Assembly (NCBI GenBank): GCA_963799775.1
Contig: CAWCYD010000003.1
Coordinates: 960,001 to 1,024,000 of the forward strand
Direction of reading: 5' to 3'
DNA: 64,000 nt
DNA from: an uncultured archaeon
GTDB taxonomy: Archaea > Thermoproteota > Nitrososphaeria > Nitrososphaerales > Gagatemarchaeaceae
In this document: one piece after another, positions 31,332 through 38,096 of the stretch
How positions within the stretch are numbered: the first letter of the stretch is position 1
How the letters are laid out: each line of letters starts with the position of its first letter
The notes under the pieces: model-generated
What the model was told of the DNA's origin: nothing
What the model saw: the letters and a program-made list of their open reading frames with translations, nothing else
Databases searched by the model: none
Program-made: the position numbers and the translations under genes

Positions 31332-34300
31332 CTAGAAGCCGAAGAGCGGGTCCTTGGCGGAACGGATCGCGGTAATCTCCTCGAGGGCACTCCTGATCGT
31401 CGGGCGTGAGCGTCGCCGCGTACTTGCCCTTCAGGATCTTCGCGTCAGCGCTTGTGGGGTACGTGTAGAGGTCTTCGTCCTCCTTAATCGTCCTCCCCAA
31501 GGTGGGGCCCTTCACCGAGATCGCGACCTGCATCCCCTTCCTTGCCTCCGGGATGTTCTTCCCGTTCTCCTGTATCTGCTCCACTACCCCGATCTCCTCT
31601 CCGCCCTGGTTCATGAGCCTCACCTTGGCGTGCAGCCGGCCCCCGAGTATCTCGACCCCAAAGACGGCCGGGTCGTTCCTCCTGAAGAAGTTCCCCTTGA
31701 GTGCCTTGATCTTTGCGGGCATCGTCACGTTCTGGAGGGCGTTCTTCTGGTCCTCCTCCTTCTTCCTCTCGGTCCACTGGACGTAGCCCTCCACCGCGTC
31801 GTAGATCACTTCAGAGGTGATTATCTCGACCTTCTCCGCGCTCTCCTTGGCCTCGGGGAGGAGCCTTGACGTCGAAGCCGATGATGGCCCCGAGGTATGG
31901 GTCGCGTTCTGCCACAGACTGGGCCTCGACTATCTCTGCCTTTGAGATGTCCCCGATGTCTGCCAGGCGGACGGGGATGCTACGCTCCTCGAGCATCTTG
32001 AGCATCGCCTCGAGGCCGCCGATGCTCCCTGCCTTGACTATGACCCCCACGTTGTCGCTTCTGCGCCTGAGGGTCCCGAGGTCTTTCTCCAGTTCGGCTC
32101 TGAGGGCTGGGAGCTCGGAGTCTTCCTGGAAGGACATCACCGCTGTCCCTGGGATCACGCCTTCGAGGTCGGGGCTTACCAGCTTTACGCCGGCCGCGGC
32201 GTAGACCTCGCCCACGGCCGTGAACTTGTCGCGAGGGTCCTTCATCTCGTCGAGGGCCTTTGGCATGAACAGCGCCTTGACCTTGGACTCGGCGATGCCG
32301 TCTCTCTTCACCACCACTATCCTGTCGCCGACGTGCAGCGTCCCGTCGGTGAGGATTATGTTCGCCGTCTCCCCCATGCCGACCTCCTCCTGGAGCTCGA
32401 GCACTATCCCCTTGGACCTCCCGAGACGCTCGCGCCTCCTTGCGAGAGCTTGGCGGTGAGGAACTGCTGCGCGAGGCCTATCAAGACCGCCAGGAGCTCC
32501 GGTATCCCTACGCCGTAGCGCGCGGAGACGGGGATTATCGAGACCTGCTTCCGAAAGTCCTTGATTCGGTAGAACGCCTCCGCCTGGAACCCGGAGCGGG
32601 AGAGGCCCCCGACGACGTTGTAGAGCTTCTCCTCCAGCTCGTCGTTCCACTCTGGAGGCTGCTGCTTCAGGGCGGCCGCGAGGGGTATGCTCTCCTTGCC
32701 GGCCACTGTGTCCTTCCTCCACCCCTTGATCATGTCCACCTTGTTGAGGGCCACCAGGAACGGGACGTGCCTGTCCTTGAGGATCTCGATGCTCTCGAAG
32801 GTCTGGTTCTCAAGGCCCTTCTGGACGTCGACGACGAGTATGGCGATGTCTGCCGCCGAGCCGCCGCGCATCCGGAGGTTGGAGAAGATCTCGTGGCCAG
32901 GGGTGTCGATGACGAGCAGGCCTGGGATCCTCAGCTGGGCTCCAGTCTTTTGGAGTAGCGAGCCGCATATGGCCTCGAGCGTCTCCATCGGGAAGAAGCT
33001 AGCGCCAATCTCTTGGGTGATCCCGCCCGCCTCTCGGGCCTGGACGCCTGTACCCCGAATCTTGTCCAGAAGGGAGGTGTTGTGGATGATGAGACCGTTG
33101 GCCAAGAAATTATGGTGGTCTTCCACCGTGAAGTCAAAGACGTCGCATCCGCCCTCAATCGCCTTGAGGCCCGAGACCTGAACGCTGGCGTAGTTGTTGA
33201 CGGTCTCGAGGAGGACTGGATTCTGATAGGTCGGAGCGACCTCGGGGAGGCGCTTGAGTAGACCTCTGCTGATATGATTCAGCCCTTCGAGAGTGTTCCA
33301 CTGGAAGTGGTTTTCCCAGCTCACCTGGTGCGACCTCCGGATCTCCGCGAGGAACTCTCCTGAAATTGGGGTGATGTCGAAGATCCTGCTGGTCTCGGCC
33401 CTCTCGCCTCTTATCCTTGCAGCAAGCATCTTCTCTTTCTCTCCGAAACCAATCCGAGAGAGGAAGGAGTTCACGTTGTCCTTCCCGCTGATGAAGATCT
33501 CCCTCTGGTGAGAACGCTTGCCAAAGTAGGCGAGGCAGCCGAAACGCGAGAGGAGCATGGGGAGCTGCCTCATCAAGAGGGGGCTCTCGCAGCCGACGCC
33601 GATGTTCCTTCCTTCTTGCACGAAGCCTTCAGCATCGAAGAACCCTCGCAAGAATTTGGCGACAAGGTTATCGGGCATTCCTGCGATTATTTCCGGCACG
33701 TGAAGCGTCCTCGTCTTGTCCTTGGTGGGGTAGTCGAAGACCTCTGCGAAGAACCTGAGGAGCGACTTACCGCCTTTGTGCGAGATGATGTAGCAGGTCC
33801 ATCCTCCAGGCTTTGCTGGCTTGAACGCCGAACGCCTTCTCGAGTCCTAGGAAATAAAGGTCCATCAGATAGGGAGAGTTGTTCGCGAGGTGACCAGATT
33901 CGGCAACCCCGTCCCCATAAAGCAGACCCACGAGATACGTGAGCGCCTCGAACCCGGTCTCATCCTTGGGGAGCGATATCCATATTGAGTTGTGAGACGC
34001 CCTCTTCTTAGGTGAAGCGGATTTTATCCTGTCAATCTCGTCGTAAGCCCTCGCAGGCGGAAGGCCCATGAGTGCTACTACTTTCCTGAAAGTGCTCGCT
34101 CGGTAATATCCCTTGTCTGAGTGAAAGAGAAACTGGGGGTCTCCGACCAGTGCGCCGACCTTCGCCCTGCGACCCTTGGAAAAGGCCAGAATCTTATCGT
34201 TCAAAGACGCGGAGACCTTGATAAGAAAGACATCAGAGAGCCGCGAGAGAATCGATTCTTTAACGGCGGGAAGGCCCTTCGGCATGACTTCGACGCGAAC

Positions 34301-34717
34301 GGGGAGGATCAGGTGATCGCCAAGAGAGAGCTTCTCCGCCTCGACGTATCCTAGATTCCCAGCCTTTGACATCACCATGAACTTGTGCTCCGGAGTACAC
34401 TTTACTGAGTACCCGGCTTTCGTCTGGACCTCAATCATCTTTTCAGCGTGAAGCTTCCACACATGAGTAGCTCGCTTGGGTACCGTCTTGCCTTCTGGAG
34501 CAGTGGAGAGAAGGAACAGGTCGGTCGCCTCATAGGCGACTCCATCGGGACGCTGAATTGGATCTCCCGACTTGAATTTCTCGAAGATACTTGACGCGGT
34601 GCTGATGCGGCCGTCAGCTAACTGGACTAGAGTGTCGCCGCTGACGCATTTTCCGCTGTCTACGTGCCCCAGCACGACGACCACTGGTTGTCGGAGTTTT
34701 TGTTCTGACTGGGACAT
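31332..34717 (-). CDS. infB: Translation initiation factor aIF5B (IF-2), intein-containing; several frameshifts
   Basis: LRQPVVVVLGHVDSGK | TSLLDKIRGT, REAGGITQ, IDTPGHE, NKVD; ends KDPLFGF* at 31332. Confidence 0.95.
33079..34648 (-). mobile_element. ~523-aa intein with LAGLIDADG endonuclease in aIF5B (one frameshift near 33800)
   Basis: Starts CVSGDT, CTPEHKF, YLVGLLYGDG, FLRGFFDAEG, VFDFTV, ends IIHN before +1 Thr. Confidence 0.95.
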
Positions 34718-34788
34718 CGGAAATCAGCATTCATGGATGTAGCGAGCCCACTAGTAATTATCCCTTGCTCGGCCCGATGGGGCACCGC

Positions 34789-35205
34789 TCACGGATAGCC
34801 TATGGTCGTGGAGTTCGAGATGGCGACGCCTCCCTGGGACATCACGAAGATGGTCGCGCTGTATTGACCCGGGTTCACGCCAGAGATCACCAGGTAGACG
34901 GTCCCGTACTGGTCCGGTGTGAGGCTGATCGTCGATGTCGTGATGTAGACGCACTGACCGAGGTTGTTGTGGAGGACCAGCAAGGCCAATCCCAGGACGG
35001 TCGAGTTGAAGTGGTTCTGGAACGTCGCCTGGGCGGCCGTGAATATCCCCACGGATTTGAAGGTCACTGGAAAGGCGAAGGTCCACTGGGTGGTGCCTCC
35101 GACCACCGTCGCGGCGCCGACGGGCCTGGCAAAGAGACATGAGGAGACGAGCAGGGCGACGGCGATGGTCGCCGCGACCCTAGAGGACGGGTTCAACAAA
35201 TTCAA
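34789..35205 (-). CDS. Small secreted protein homologous to the C-terminal domain of the S-layer-like protein
   Basis: Signal peptide; VLHNNLGQCVYITTSTI...GQYSATIF matches VVHNGAGQTVDVSTATI...GTYSVTLF. Confidence 0.7.
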   Translation of the reverse strand: MNLLNPSSRVAATIAVALLVSSCLFARPVGAATVVGGTTQWTFAFPVTFKSVGIFTAAQATFQNHFNSTVLGLALLVLHNNLGQCVYITTSTISLTPDQYGTVYLVISGVNPGQYSATIFVMSQGGVAISNSTTIGYP

Positions 35206-35253
35206 GCCGAACTTTCCGTGCTCTTATCCCTTGTGAGAGATGATGCCAGAAAC

Positions 35254-35300
35254 AGCTTGCGCTAGGCTGTGAAAAATAAAAAAAGAGTGAAGAGAAAAGG
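35254..35300 (-). terminator. U-tract terminator region of ftsZ
   Basis: CTTTTCTCTTCACTCTTTTTTTATTTTT on the minus strand after the stop. Confidence 0.65.
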
Positions 35301-35311
35301 CTGTGATGCCT

Positions 35312-36367
35312 TTAGCTCTTCGGACCGATTTTGATCGGACCCAGTGAGAAGCTGTACTCTTGCTGCTGAGCGAGGAAGGTGCTCTCCACGCCAGTGAGCA
35401 TGACCATCGTCTTCACTCGTCCTTCGAGAGTCGGGTCCACACGTGCGCCCCAGACGATCCTTACTCGTGGAGGCAGCGACTTTGTTACAAGTTCGCCTGC
35501 CCTTGTGACCTCCTCGAGTGTCACGTCTGAGCCGCCTGTCACGTGGACGAGGGCCCCTTGAGACTTGGTCACGTCCCTGATGTCAAGTAGCTGCCCTTCG
35601 ATGGCCTGCCTGATCGCGATCTCTACCCTGTCCGACCCCTTGGCCTCGCCTACACCGATAGCTGCAAGACCCTTGCGCTCACATATGGCGCGGAGGTCTG
35701 CGTAGTCGATGTTGATGAGACTGGCCGTGGTGATGGTCTCGGTGATGCCCTTGACGAACTGGCCTACCAGCTCGTTTGCAACTCCCAGCGCCTGCTGCAG
35801 TGGCAGGTCGCCTGCGACCTTGGACAGTTTGGTGTTGTCGATTGCGACGACGGTGTCACAGTACTGGCGGAGAACCTTGAGAGCGTTCTTCGCGTTGTCG
35901 TACCTGTATCTCTCGACAGAGAACGGCAAAGTCACGACGCCTATTACTAGGCGGCCCTGCTTCGCGAGTTCCTTGGAGAGCACCTCGATCGCTCCTGTGC
36001 CAGTACCCCCTCCGAGGCCTGCGCAAAGGAAGATGATGTTGCTGTTTTGTGTTTCTTTCTGGAAGTCGTCGAGCGACTCCCTTGTGGCTGCCGCACCGCG
36101 CTGAGGGTACCCTCCGGCGCCCTGGCCGTGCGTGAGCTTCTCACCCATGAGGATCCTGCGATCCGCCTTGGTGATGCTCAGGTGTGCTGCGTCTGTGTTG
36201 GCGGCTATGAGTTTGCCGCCGGTGATGCCTCTCTCCTTGATCCAGGAGATGATGTTGCTTCCGGCTCCCCCGACACCTATTACGGTGACGTTGGGTTTGG
36301 CCATCCGCATGACTGCGGCGATTTTTTCGGCTTCTATGAAGTCCATTCCTTCGTTAGATACTTCCAT
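35312..36367 (-). CDS. ftsZ: Cell division protein FtsZ
   Basis: GVGGAGSN, ANTD, GAGG, GLGGGTGTGA signature, INIDYADL T7 loop. Confidence 0.96.
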   Translation of the reverse strand: MEVSNEGMDFIEAEKIAAVMRMAKPNVTVIGVGGAGSNIISWIKERGITGGKLIAANTDAAHLSITKADRRILMGEKLTHGQGAGGYPQRGAAATRESLDDFQKETQNSNIIFLCAGLGGGTGTGAIEVLSKELAKQGRLVIGVVTLPFSVERYRYDNAKNALKVLRQYCDTVVAIDNTKLSKVAGDLPLQQALGVANELVGQFVKGITETITTASLINIDYADLRAICERKGLAAIGVGEAKGSDRVEIAIRQAIEGQLLDIRDVTKSQGALVHVTGGSDVTLEEVTRAGELVTKSLPPRVRIVWGARVDPTLEGRVKTMVMLTGVESTFLAQQQEYSFSLGPIKIGPKS

Positions 36368-36524
36368 CGTAGCCTTGTTAATGTAAATTTTTATAGAAAA
36401 AGGTTATGAATTCTGATAAGTTAACATCTTTCTAACGTTAAGTTAACGGGCCTCCTCGGAACAAGGCGTAAATTAACTTAGTCAAGCTTATATTCGGCGC
36501 TCGAGCGGACTAACTTAACGTGGA
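36368..36524. promoter_or_regulatory. Divergent promoter region with four TAAGTTA boxes
   Basis: TAAGTTA at 36417 and 36439 (+), 36474 and 36511 (-); TATA-like CTATAAAAA (-) before ftsZ and CTTATAT (+) before 36525. Confidence 0.65.
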
Positions 36525-37094
36525 TTGACTAGTCCCGCCCCATCCGCATCACCTACAATCATCGAGTACCTCTCAACCTGGGTCAAGGACAAGGATGTCG
36601 TCAAGCGGAGCCGGATCCCCACCGAAAAGAAAGTCCTCGCAGCGGTGATGTGCGCATCGGGCTACACGTATAGGGACGCTTCCAAGATATTGGGTGGAAT
36701 CTCCCACGTCGCGGTCCACGACGCCTACAAGTCGGTCATCGCCGCCATGGCTCCCCTCGCAAAGAAGGACCGGACGGTGACGATCGAGGAGAATGCTGCT
36801 TATCTTAACAGCGAGACTCCTGGAGTGGTGTGGATGGCCAGGGACTTCGACACCGGCGAGATACTCTCCTTCCGATGCTCGGTGACCAAATCGCCTGCGG
36901 ATAGCAAGAAGTTCATCGAATCCGTCCTGGCTAGCTGCAACGACAGGCCCTTGTTGAGGGTCGGAAGAGGGCCTAACTTCCCACATTCTTTGAAATATTT
37001 GGACCTTTACTTCCGGATAGACACGACGGCCACGACGAAGTTCCGCCAGAGGATCAGCAACTTCTTCCTGGGCGGTTCCGAGCCGAAGAGCTAG
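36525..37094 (+). CDS. IS6-family transposase-derived protein, catalytically inactivated (HTH plus RNase H fold)
   Basis: SGYTYRDASKILGGISHVAV HTH; TIEEN, WMARDFDTGEIL, LRVGRGPNF, RQRISNFF align to IS6 IDET, WAAxDxxTxEIL, VDGGPWY, RNxIERWF. Confidence 0.8.
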   Translation: MTSPAPSASPTIIEYLSTWVKDKDVVKRSRIPTEKKVLAAVMCASGYTYRDASKILGGISHVAVHDAYKSVIAAMAPLAKKDRTVTIEENAAYLNSETPGVVWMARDFDTGEILSFRCSVTKSPADSKKFIESVLASCNDRPLLRVGRGPNFPHSLKYLDLYFRIDTTATTKFRQRISNFFLGGSEPKS

Positions 37095-37218
37095 ACGTCC
37101 CGACCCTGTCTCCCGCGTCAGAAACTCTGGGGAGGGGCCGGCCCCTTGCTCTAGAGGCTGCTGGAGGTGCCTATTCTTCGCCTGTGCCTGGGGCGCAGGG
37201 CTATCGACCGGAAGAACC

Positions 37219-37584
37219 TCACGCGGGTGGACATGCCCTCTGCAACACCTGTGTTATCGCCCTCGTCCTCGCCGTCGCCATCTCTCCATCCGAGCCGCAC
37301 CTCGAGTAGCAGTCGGAGGCCCTCTGCACGAAGAAGAGCGCCTGAGAGACCTTGCGGGGCACGGGAGACGAGTCTGACGCGAGGGTGAGCTGTCCTGCGG
37401 TCTCGTACCAGAGACCTGCGTTGGCGTCCTCGCCCATCTTCTCATAGTCGTCGGCTATCCATTCTGCGACGCTCTCCCACTCCGAGGAAGCCTCGATGTC
37501 GTCCAGGATTCCCATCAACGACTTTACGGCGTTCTTGTAATCGCCCGACTTTTCAAGCGCGAATGCTCGCGAGATTTGACCCAT
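37219..37584 (-). CDS. Small alpha-helical TPR-like protein
   Basis: A-x-A-LEKSGDYKNA and IADDYEKMGEDANAGLWYETA patterns. Confidence 0.55.
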   Translation of the reverse strand: MGQISRAFALEKSGDYKNAVKSLMGILDDIEASSEWESVAEWIADDYEKMGEDANAGLWYETAGQLTLASDSSPVPRKVSQALFFVQRASDCYSRCGSDGEMATARTRAITQVLQRACPPA

Positions 37585-37676
37585 TGGCGAGCAGAGAATG
37601 CCTGCCCGCGTCTAAGATGGCGCCACTCAACTATTTTGGAGCAAGCGGTCAGGAAACCGTCAAGAATGAAGCGGAC

Positions 37677-38096
37677 CTAGCCGAAGTAGGCCTTGCTCTC
37701 TCTCTCGAACGACTCTTTCGAGTCGGAGGCGTGGATTGCGTTGTCCGTCAGGCCTATCGCGAGGTCACCCCTTATCGTCCCAGGCGAAGCCTCCCAGCTC
37801 TTGGTGGCCCCGACCATCCTCCTCACCGTGGCGACCGCGTCCATGCCTTGGATGATGGCTCCCACCGTCATCCCGCCCGAGAAGGACGCGACGAGCTCAC
37901 CGAAGAAAGGCCTCTCCTTGTGGACGCTGTAGAACTCCTCCGCCTTGGCCTTGCTCATGGTCTGGGACTTCACCTGGACCAGCTTCATCCCCCTCTTCTC
38001 GAACCTCCCAAGGATCTCGCCGACCAGGCCTCTCGCGACAGCGGCCGGCTTCACGACGATGAGCGTCTTCTCGCTGGGGTCAGGTTGAGATGACAT
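37677..38096 (-). CDS. ndk: Nucleoside diphosphate kinase
   Basis: EKTLIVVKP, HKERPFF, PGTIRGD, NAIHASDS. Confidence 0.97.
   Translation of the reverse strand: MSSQPDPSEKTLIVVKPAAVARGLVGEILGRFEKRGMKLVQVKSQTMSKAKAEEFYSVHKERPFFGELVASFSGGMTVGAIIQGMDAVATVRRMVGATKSWEASPGTIRGDLAIGLTDNAIHASDSKESFERESKAYFG

Follow-up and report, generated by a model that had tools for sequence, protein, structure and literature searches.

What does a gene derived from an insertion sequence (IS), with its catalytic residues replaced, do beside a cell-division gene? The question is raised by a locus in a 64,000-nt stretch of DNA (the window) from an uncultured archaeon of the Gagatemarchaeaceae, whose genome is labelled G000 here; other genomes carry G numbers, and loci or stretches within them L numbers. 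An open reading frame (ORF) and ftsZ stand there head to head on opposite strands with a 157-bp gap (36368-36524) between them, the layout reported in a preliminary description of the locus:

35312..36367, minus strand: canonical ftsZ, 351 aa, paralogue 1 of 4 in G000, above the cut-off of TIGR00065
36525..37094, plus strand: dead, truncated IS6-derived gene, 189 aa, TTG start, supported by the ORF list, homology, a single copy in its own genome and a dN/dS of 0.168

"Dead" refers throughout to the replacement of the catalytic residues. The dead gene looks like a domesticated host gene, neither mobile nor decaying, and the dead family to which it belongs is older and wider than its pairing with ftsZ. 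We give an even chance to the reading that its product is a site-specific DNA binder, which would regulate its own gene through operators derived from terminal inverted repeats (TIRs) and, in one sub-clade of the genus, would also set the transcription of the divergent ftsZ.

The direct match of the ORF to the IS6 family is weak. A Pfam scan gave HTH_23 as the sole match (E 0.14), and the NCBIfam model transpos_IS6 (NF033587) aligned ORF residues 26-170 with model positions 1-153 of 202 at E 0.0011 and 18.7 bits, below its cut-off of 125. An intact relative of 224 aa (L020:1474-2148, from a genome of the same genus) is 32% identical to the ORF (E 3e-18) and is itself matched by transpos_IS6 at E 3.7e-35 and by PF13610 at E 3.8e-11. 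Its gene lies inside a 767-bp element whose perfect TIRs are 14 nt long (GATACCGTTAAGAT); an 8-bp direct repeat, GCTTCTAG, is also present. Run against 1.84 billion protein representatives, a dead-family profile matched 247 proteins at E <= 1e-3. Twelve of these (96-213 aa) reached E <= 1e-30 and are dead-family members or fragments thereof; the next-ranked matches, at E 1e-23 to 1e-9, are proteins of 200-230 aa with an intact DDE triad. In a protein atlas the ORF falls first in two clusters of hypothetical proteins, whose commonest phylum is Nitrososphaerota, and IS6/PF13610 clusters come next. Among 5.8 billion proteins it matched 112 clusters, mostly of 182-194 aa and 60-92% identical to the ORF, some of which carry the name "transposase-like protein" in one source. 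The IS6 homology of the ORF is firm because the intact relative and the profile search bridge the two. Judged by its sequence, the ORF is a truncated relative of the IS6-family transposases, and the direct homology is real but distant. The IS6 pattern that the preliminary description had seen along the ORF is thereby confirmed.

The alignments also bear out the changes that it had listed at all three catalytic positions (IDE to IEE, DGGP to GRGP and RNxIE(R)F to RQRISNFF). Intact relatives read A-I-D-E-T, V-D-x-G-P-W-Y and R-N-x-I-E-R-F, whereas the ORF reads T-I-E-E-N, V-G-R-G-P-N-F and R-Q-R-I-S-N-F, with E88, G147 and S178 at the catalytic positions. Over the dead family the first position varies among E, D and Q, the second is G and rarely E, D, T or H, and the third is never E. 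Every dead form terminates about 10 residues past the third position, and about 45 C-terminal residues are therefore missing; a search in every frame downstream of the ORF found no trace of a C-terminal transposase remnant.

An AlphaFold2 model of the ORF, built from a 48-sequence alignment (pLDDT 85.2, pTM 0.77), contains four N-terminal helices that include a helix and helix-turn-helix (H-HTH) unit, followed by a beta-beta-beta-alpha-beta-alpha RNase H-like core. The two predicted parts map to the gene as follows:

36621..36746, plus strand: H-HTH DNA-binding region, residues 33-74 (helices 33-44, 49-56 and 61-74 in the model, pLDDT >90)
36774..37067, plus strand: remnant of the RNase H-like (DDE-fold) domain, residues 84-181 (strands 84-93, 99-107, 113-119 and 143-145, helices 124-135 and 168-181)

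An extra helix (residues 12-22) stands ahead of the H-HTH in the model. Residues R28, K36, R50 and S60 are near-invariant in dead and intact forms alike. Foldseek searches of the PDB placed Mu transposase (E 5.1e-4), the SETMAR transposase domain (3f2k, 7.8e-4), TnsB and retroviral integrase cores at the top ranks; these E-values are weak, yet consistent with a DDE transposase/integrase fold. As modelled, the ORF retains the H-HTH together with the greater part of an RNase H-like fold, and it can no longer cut DNA.

Is the gene maintained? The G000 assembly (2.47 Mb, 3 contigs, 81.7% complete) contains one copy of it; two ordinary PF13610 transposase genes lie elsewhere, neither of which matches the ORF. 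Nine of the 22 other genomes assigned to the genus have one orthologue each, at 65-78% identity, and the order ftsZ / ORF / tpr121 / ndk is retained in all nine. Selection was estimated by the Nei-Gojobori method (NG86) from 28 pairs among 8 genomes, G011 and G022, which look frameshifted, being excluded. The ratio of nonsynonymous to synonymous substitution (dN/dS) of the dead gene is 0.168 (range 0.089-0.296; median dS 1.19), compared with 0.085 for ftsZ, 0.136 for tpr121 and 0.109 for ndk. All parts of the dead protein are constrained, most strongly the HTH region, which has the lowest pN/pS (0.25). Dead genes of other genera give a dN/dS of 0.217 (94 of 210 pairs, with 0.1 < dS < 1.5).

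Beyond the genus, a profile search over 251 genomes of the order at E <= 1e-20 found matches in 40. One full-length dead gene each is present in 32 of the 57 other genomes of the same taxonomic family, with an additional fragment at a contig end in G202. Outside the taxonomic family, matches occur in 8 of 194 genomes, often in multiple copies and often with internal stops, as IS copies would. In a maximum-likelihood tree, rooted at its midpoint only, a 100/99 branch separates 37 dead forms from 14 intact transposases, which is consistent with one ancient domestication; the 8 sequences from the sub-clade form a monophyletic group (100/100).

These data bear on whether the gene could be a slowly decaying, functionless IS relic kept by chance beside ftsZ. 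Such a relic could well have lost its catalytic residues and C-terminus, and it could evolve faster than its neighbours, as the dead gene does (65-78% identity, against 94-96% among the FtsZ orthologues). Frameshifts are apparent in two of the 10 sub-clade orthologues: in G011 an assembly error is likely, since ndk and tpr121 are frameshifted too, and in G022 the frameshift is restricted to the dead gene. A relic is nevertheless contradicted by dN/dS values of 0.17-0.22 at a dS of about 1.1-1.2, by a frame that stays open at a constant ~185 aa in 8 of 10 sub-clade genomes and over the 112 protein clusters, by the single copy in those 32 genomes, by a fold predicted with confidence and by the conservation of the promoter sites described below. 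We regard it as very improbable. The idea of an exapted dead transposase, put forward in the preliminary description together with the expectation of one copy and a dN/dS far below 1, is thus supported: single copy, synteny with ftsZ, dN/dS near 0.17, separation in the tree and the kept fold all argue for domestication.

What, then, might the protein act on? No flanking TIR pair or target-site duplication (TSD) was found around the dead gene, in agreement with the earlier statement that there is none; that statement had overlooked an inverted pair of TIR-derived sites upstream. The ends of related intact ISs read GATACCGTTAAGAT, GGGATTGTCAAGATAAG, GATGTTGTCACGATAAG and GATGATGTTAAGATAAG, one of these elements having an 8-bp TSD, and they fit the GG tips and TGT motif described for the IS6 family in PMC7986276. 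Between ftsZ and the dead gene, ACGTTAAGTTA (36435-36445) and TAACTTAACGT (36511-36521) form an inverted repeat, complementary at 11 of 11 positions, that resembles the inner part of related IS ends; only two copies of this 11-mer exist in the 2.47-Mb genome, both at this locus. Listed from the ftsZ side, the candidate elements are:

36388..36396, minus strand: TATA-like box of ftsZ, CTATAAAAA, about 25 nt before the ATG, read from the sequence, with a presumed promoter role
36404..36425, no strand assigned: conserved block A, TTATGAATTCTGATAAGTTAAC, 37-58 nt upstream of the ftsZ ATG and just beyond the ftsZ TATA-like box, among the best-conserved spacer blocks in 10 genomes
36435..36447, plus strand: distal TIR-like site, ACGTTAAGTTAAC, in left-end orientation, conserved in all 10 sub-clade genomes
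36484..36494, plus strand: TATA-like box of the dead gene, AAGCTTATATT, between the arms and 31-41 nt before the start, a conserved block AAGCT[TC]AT[AT]A in the 10-genome alignment, with a putative promoter role
36511..36521, minus strand: proximal inverted TIR-like site, TAACTTAACGT, ending 3 nt before the TTG start
36799..36809, minus strand: internal CTTATCTTAAC in the dead gene, over codons A-Y-L-N, its nucleotides kept in 6 of 8 orthologues

Across the 10 genomes the TIR-like sites and block A are conserved, while the rest of the spacer has diverged. The proximal arm is CTTATCTTAAC, the inner 11 nt of an IS end, in four relatives of the sub-clade. The pattern GTTAAG[AT]TA[AG] has seven matches in the genome, three of them at this locus (36437, 36510 and 36800, the last inside the gene); the internal copy could be a third binding site or a by-product of coding. 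Block A is unique in G000 and absent upstream of the three other ftsZ paralogues.

The site pair recurs far from the sub-clade. At 24 loci from other genera, encoding proteins 33-47% identical to the ORF, the 260 nt before a conserved N-terminal anchor were surveyed. A forward site ctGTTAAGATAAt, with at most two mismatches to GTTAAGATAAG (the inner 11 nt of related IS ends), is present in 21 of them, and in 17 an inverted copy (atCTTAAC) follows about 40 nt downstream and ends 6-10 nt before the ATG, so that the two arms bracket the promoter of the gene; the pair in the window has diverged and keeps this layout. Over the other 146,362 positions of the 24 loci the same pattern has three matches. 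The arms are oriented as the ends of a miniature element, with a short conserved CTAAG-type box between them. The outer IS tips (GAT/GG) are conserved at none of these sites, which suits binding without cleavage. The TIR-derived site pair is the best clue to mechanism. Candidates for a wider regulon in G000 were set aside: two other forward/inverted pairs are weak, two-mismatch matches, and the one other intergenic match, a perfect ctGTTAAGATAATtc ahead of an HTH_45 gene (G000:C3:143803), is kept in none of six orthologous promoters and was taken as chance.

Sites of this origin are also what a factor of IS immunity might possess. The dead protein would then bind the ends of incoming IS6-type elements or poison their transpososome, much like the truncated-transposase inhibitors of Tn5 or P elements, its own sites would be autoregulatory and its adjacency to ftsZ accidental. 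This is a serious rival, which we consider unlikely. It agrees with the finding that the only conserved chromosomal sites are those of the gene's own promoter, and in several lineages these still match extant IS ends exactly (GTTAAGATAAG in L097 and L099, compared with an IS of G036); the sub-clade's own sites, however, have drifted from the IS consensus. The purifying selection on a dead RNase H-like body would be understandable if that body served to join a transpososome. Against immunity, retention of the gene down to 35% identity would require that one IS clade alone kept up a lasting pressure. Within the taxonomic family, genomes that have the dead gene show one match each, whereas some outside it show 3-9, many with internal stops. 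Intact ISs of this clade are nonetheless rare everywhere (the 8 of 194 genomes outside the taxonomic family, at E <= 1e-20), so that the copy-number contrast is weak, and it is confounded by relatedness as well. Moreover, in G017 the dead gene coexists with an intact IS that has a TSD, and immunity would leave the repeated proximity of the dead gene to cdvA or ftsZ, described below, unexplained.

The reading that we prefer, a DNA-binding autoregulator, follows from three observations: the HTH is the most constrained region, key residues are shared with intact relatives, and presumed cognate sites flank the promoter. The N-terminal H-HTH of IS6 transposases is regarded as their potential DNA-binding domain (PMC6807381). 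The dead protein, keeping this end-binding domain and the RNase H-like body and making no cut, would bind the two inverted TIR-derived operators as a multimer. The 65-bp promoter segment between the operators might be looped, and the arms might be paired through the RNase H-like body, as in a frozen paired-end complex; the bound complex would repress the dead gene's own promoter. In the sub-clade, the operator cluster and block A fill the 157-bp region shared with ftsZ, and their occupancy would also set ftsZ transcription; here the protein probably co-regulates the divergent ftsZ. From gene and spacer we infer binding to the sites, autorepression and the effect on ftsZ.

The resemblances of the dead gene to known systems are each partial. 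Like the IS6/IS26 transposases (NF033587, PF13610), with which sequence homology is detectable, its product has an N-terminal H-HTH followed by an RNase H-like domain, and the core of its sites resembles the ends of IS6-type archaeal elements. Unlike the active members, it has all DDE positions replaced and about 45 C-terminal residues gone. It has no flanking TIRs or TSD and both TIR-like arms lie upstream, in contrast to the 14-nt TIR and 8-bp TSD of the intact relative, and it is a single-copy gene with fixed synteny, under purifying selection as a host gene. Truncated transposases are known as inhibitors of transposition, such as Tn5 Inh and the P-element repressors. Like these, the dead protein is a transposase derivative without catalysis, predicted here to keep end-binding and multimerisation surfaces; they are element-encoded, whereas the dead gene is a fixed single-copy host gene across a taxonomic family. 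In eukaryotic SETMAR/Metnase and FHY3/FAR1, the latter listed as transposase-derived transcription factors in PMC6000157, a transposase DNA-binding domain is kept and used on sites derived from transposon ends, as is predicted here; the differences are the archaeal host, the IS6 source and sites that lie at the gene's own promoter only instead of being dispersed. CdrS is described (PMC7439475, PMC8406309) as a ribbon-helix-helix regulator linked to ftsZ2 in Haloarchaea, its gene lying co-oriented directly upstream. The dead gene likewise encodes a small, predicted DNA-binding protein beside an ftsZ, but with an HTH and RNase H-like body instead of a ribbon-helix-helix, in divergent orientation instead of co-transcription and of different origin.

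How did the dead gene come to stand beside ftsZ? The window FtsZ is a canonical member of its family (TIGR00065, E 1.1e-94, 317.7 bits with a cut-off of 295.2; PF00091 tubulin, E 1.5e-39; PF12327 FtsZ_C, E 2.1e-25) with the GGGTGTG motif. The remaining genes around the pair are:

34789..35205, minus strand: 138-aa ORF with a signal-peptide-like N-terminus and no family in Pfam, at the left end of the block inserted in the sub-clade
37219..37584, minus strand: tpr121, a small TPR-like protein of 121 aa, syntenic in 9 of 9 relatives, its TPR matches weak
37677-38096, minus strand: ndk, to the right of tpr121

In G007 and G014, of the sister group, the surrounding synteny is kept and aIF5B stands directly against ndk; the ~3-kb block (~34718-37676) that contains the 138-aa ORF, ftsZ, the dead gene and tpr121 is therefore a sub-clade-specific insertion. 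A G007 locus reached through a 31%-identical TPR match was not orthologous, and the ndk-anchored loci were taken instead. An intein with LAGLIDADG-like motifs splits the aIF5B/IF2-type GTPase next to the block (window 32404-34717, minus strand). In the ORF list this gene appears as 33767-34717 and 32404-33699, which are not joined in one frame, and the intein part is matched in G017 and not in G018. In L094 (G202:C162:1-2264), from the closest outgroup to the sub-clade, the dead gene is followed in the same orientation by a tpr121 homologue of 38% identity; the G202 contig begins 206 nt before the dead gene. The association of the dead gene with the TPR-like protein may thus predate its association with ftsZ.

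Canonical FtsZ is itself patchy. A single divergent tubulin/FtsZ (~65-75 bits) is found in 22 of the 23 genomes of the genus, and only 11 of them (G000, the nine with the ORF, and G006, which has this ftsZ at a contig edge) add one to four canonical FtsZ (~140 bits). Over the order, canonical FtsZ at E <= 1e-40 occurs in 28 of 121 genomes, a tally that includes the unpublished G132. Besides the window copy, FtsZ-family genes of G000 lie on C3 at 558499-559551, 1227323-1228327, 201098-201562 and 1909434-1910894. The last of these (L072:1501-2961), the fourth canonical FtsZ, is one open frame of 486 aa whose halves are 91% and 82% identical to the window FtsZ. About 135 aa that include an ArsR-type winged HTH (HTH_20, E 1.1e-7, above cut-off) are inserted between its GTPase domain (26-185) and FtsZ C-terminal domain (364-459); the FtsZ matches from the other genus genomes compared showed no insert.

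Elsewhere in the taxonomic family the dead gene keeps other company. At 25 loci of other genera, the upstream same-strand gene encodes an AN1 zinc-finger/M50 peptidase in 18 and a DCC1-like gene follows in 13, both by Pfam; CdvA (PF18822, E 7.5e-21) follows within the 1.5-kb flank in nine. Larger flanks showed cdvA 1.6 kb from the dead gene in G089 and canonical ftsZ 0.8 kb past the DCC1-like gene in G041 and 4.4 kb upstream in G188; neither gene was found within ~8-9 kb on each side in G174 and G098, or on the whole 8.3-kb contig of G024. In sum, cdvA or ftsZ lies ~0.5-5 kb from the dead gene at 12 of the 25 loci, most of the others having been seen to 1.5 kb only, and this proximity favours some link to division. 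The AN1/M50 gene of G000 lies at C3:562160-562921, 2.6 kb from ftsZ paralogue 2; the dead gene has thus parted from the neighbour that it commonly has and now accompanies a copy of ftsZ. Between that paralogue and the AN1/M50 gene stand two ORFs (G000:C3:560029-561029; L064:3028-4027), one a MarR-HTH/nucleotidyltransferase (PF01909, E 1.6e-10) and the other small and HEPN-like by eye only; the pair looks toxin-antitoxin-like and occupies the site where other genera have the dead gene.

Such neighbourhoods also admit a chromosomal landmark or division factor, which would bind its unique site cluster and physically couple the locus to FtsZ here and to CdvA in sister genera. ParB/parS, SegB, Noc and SlmA would be its analogues. 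The sites are clustered at a single locus, one of them inside the gene, cdvA or ftsZ is near at the 12 loci just given and ftsZ is head to head here, and the FtsZ paralogue with the winged-HTH insert shows that this lineage can join FtsZ to a DNA-binding module. The contact between proteins, however, is purely hypothetical, drawn from gene neighbourhood and site clustering; the internal site is sub-clade-specific and possibly a by-product of the A-Y-L-N codons, and other genera show just the two promoter sites. We consider such a role improbable. Co-folding of FtsZ with the ORF scored 0.11 against a mark of 0.32, which weighs neither way.

Several observations count against the proposed regulator. 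A weight matrix built from IS ends gives the window sites 9.8-12.7 bits, among 697 genome matches above 8 bits and not at the top; the matrix thus fails to set them apart, and for this genome the likeness to IS ends is carried mostly by the better-preserved sites in relatives and by conservation. A search of site matches in G000 found no second target. In most of the family the sites occur only in the dead gene's own promoter, with no divergent partner, so that autoregulation alone explains them. The head-to-head pairing is restricted to one sub-clade, G000 and nine genomes, and the family mostly lacks a canonical ftsZ near the dead gene. The synteny with ftsZ expected in the preliminary description therefore holds in nine of nine sub-clade relatives and not in the wider family, and control of ftsZ or of division, which it had also proposed, is something we infer. 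The pairing is shared by close kin, with FtsZ 94-96% identical, and may simply be inherited. CdvA is present in G000 alongside the four canonical FtsZ paralogues, the FtsZ of the one studied relative, Nitrosopumilus maritimus, is reported in PMC3684127 not to polymerise, and the frameshifts in G011 and G022 are to be counted here too. Two division toolkits, CdvA and FtsZ, thus coexist in one lineage; a search for the Snf7 family in G000 gave no match above cut-off, and a control genome likewise stayed below it. Contigs from four of four soil and peat metatranscriptome runs covered ftsZ-like sequence at 80-99% likeness and left the ORF almost uncovered, though such contigs cannot show absence.

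The literature searched, the coverage of which was partial and without supplements, contained no account of an IS6-family transposase that had been domesticated in archaea or bacteria; in two IS surveys (PMC7986276 and PMC13343696) the term "domesticat" has 0 occurrences each. Eukaryotes offer well-documented cases of transposases turned into DNA-binding proteins of the host. At this locus both halves of the old system appear to be preserved, a protein predicted to bind IS ends and, reused on either side of a promoter, two sites derived from such ends, and their conservation over a whole archaeal family makes the mechanism directly testable. If the landmark role were true, a function like that of ParB, SegB or Noc would have been invented in archaea from an insertion sequence. 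For lineages, probably Nitrososphaerota, with CdvA and up to four canonical FtsZ, a regulator or partner encoded beside ftsZ or cdvA would offer a way into their division.

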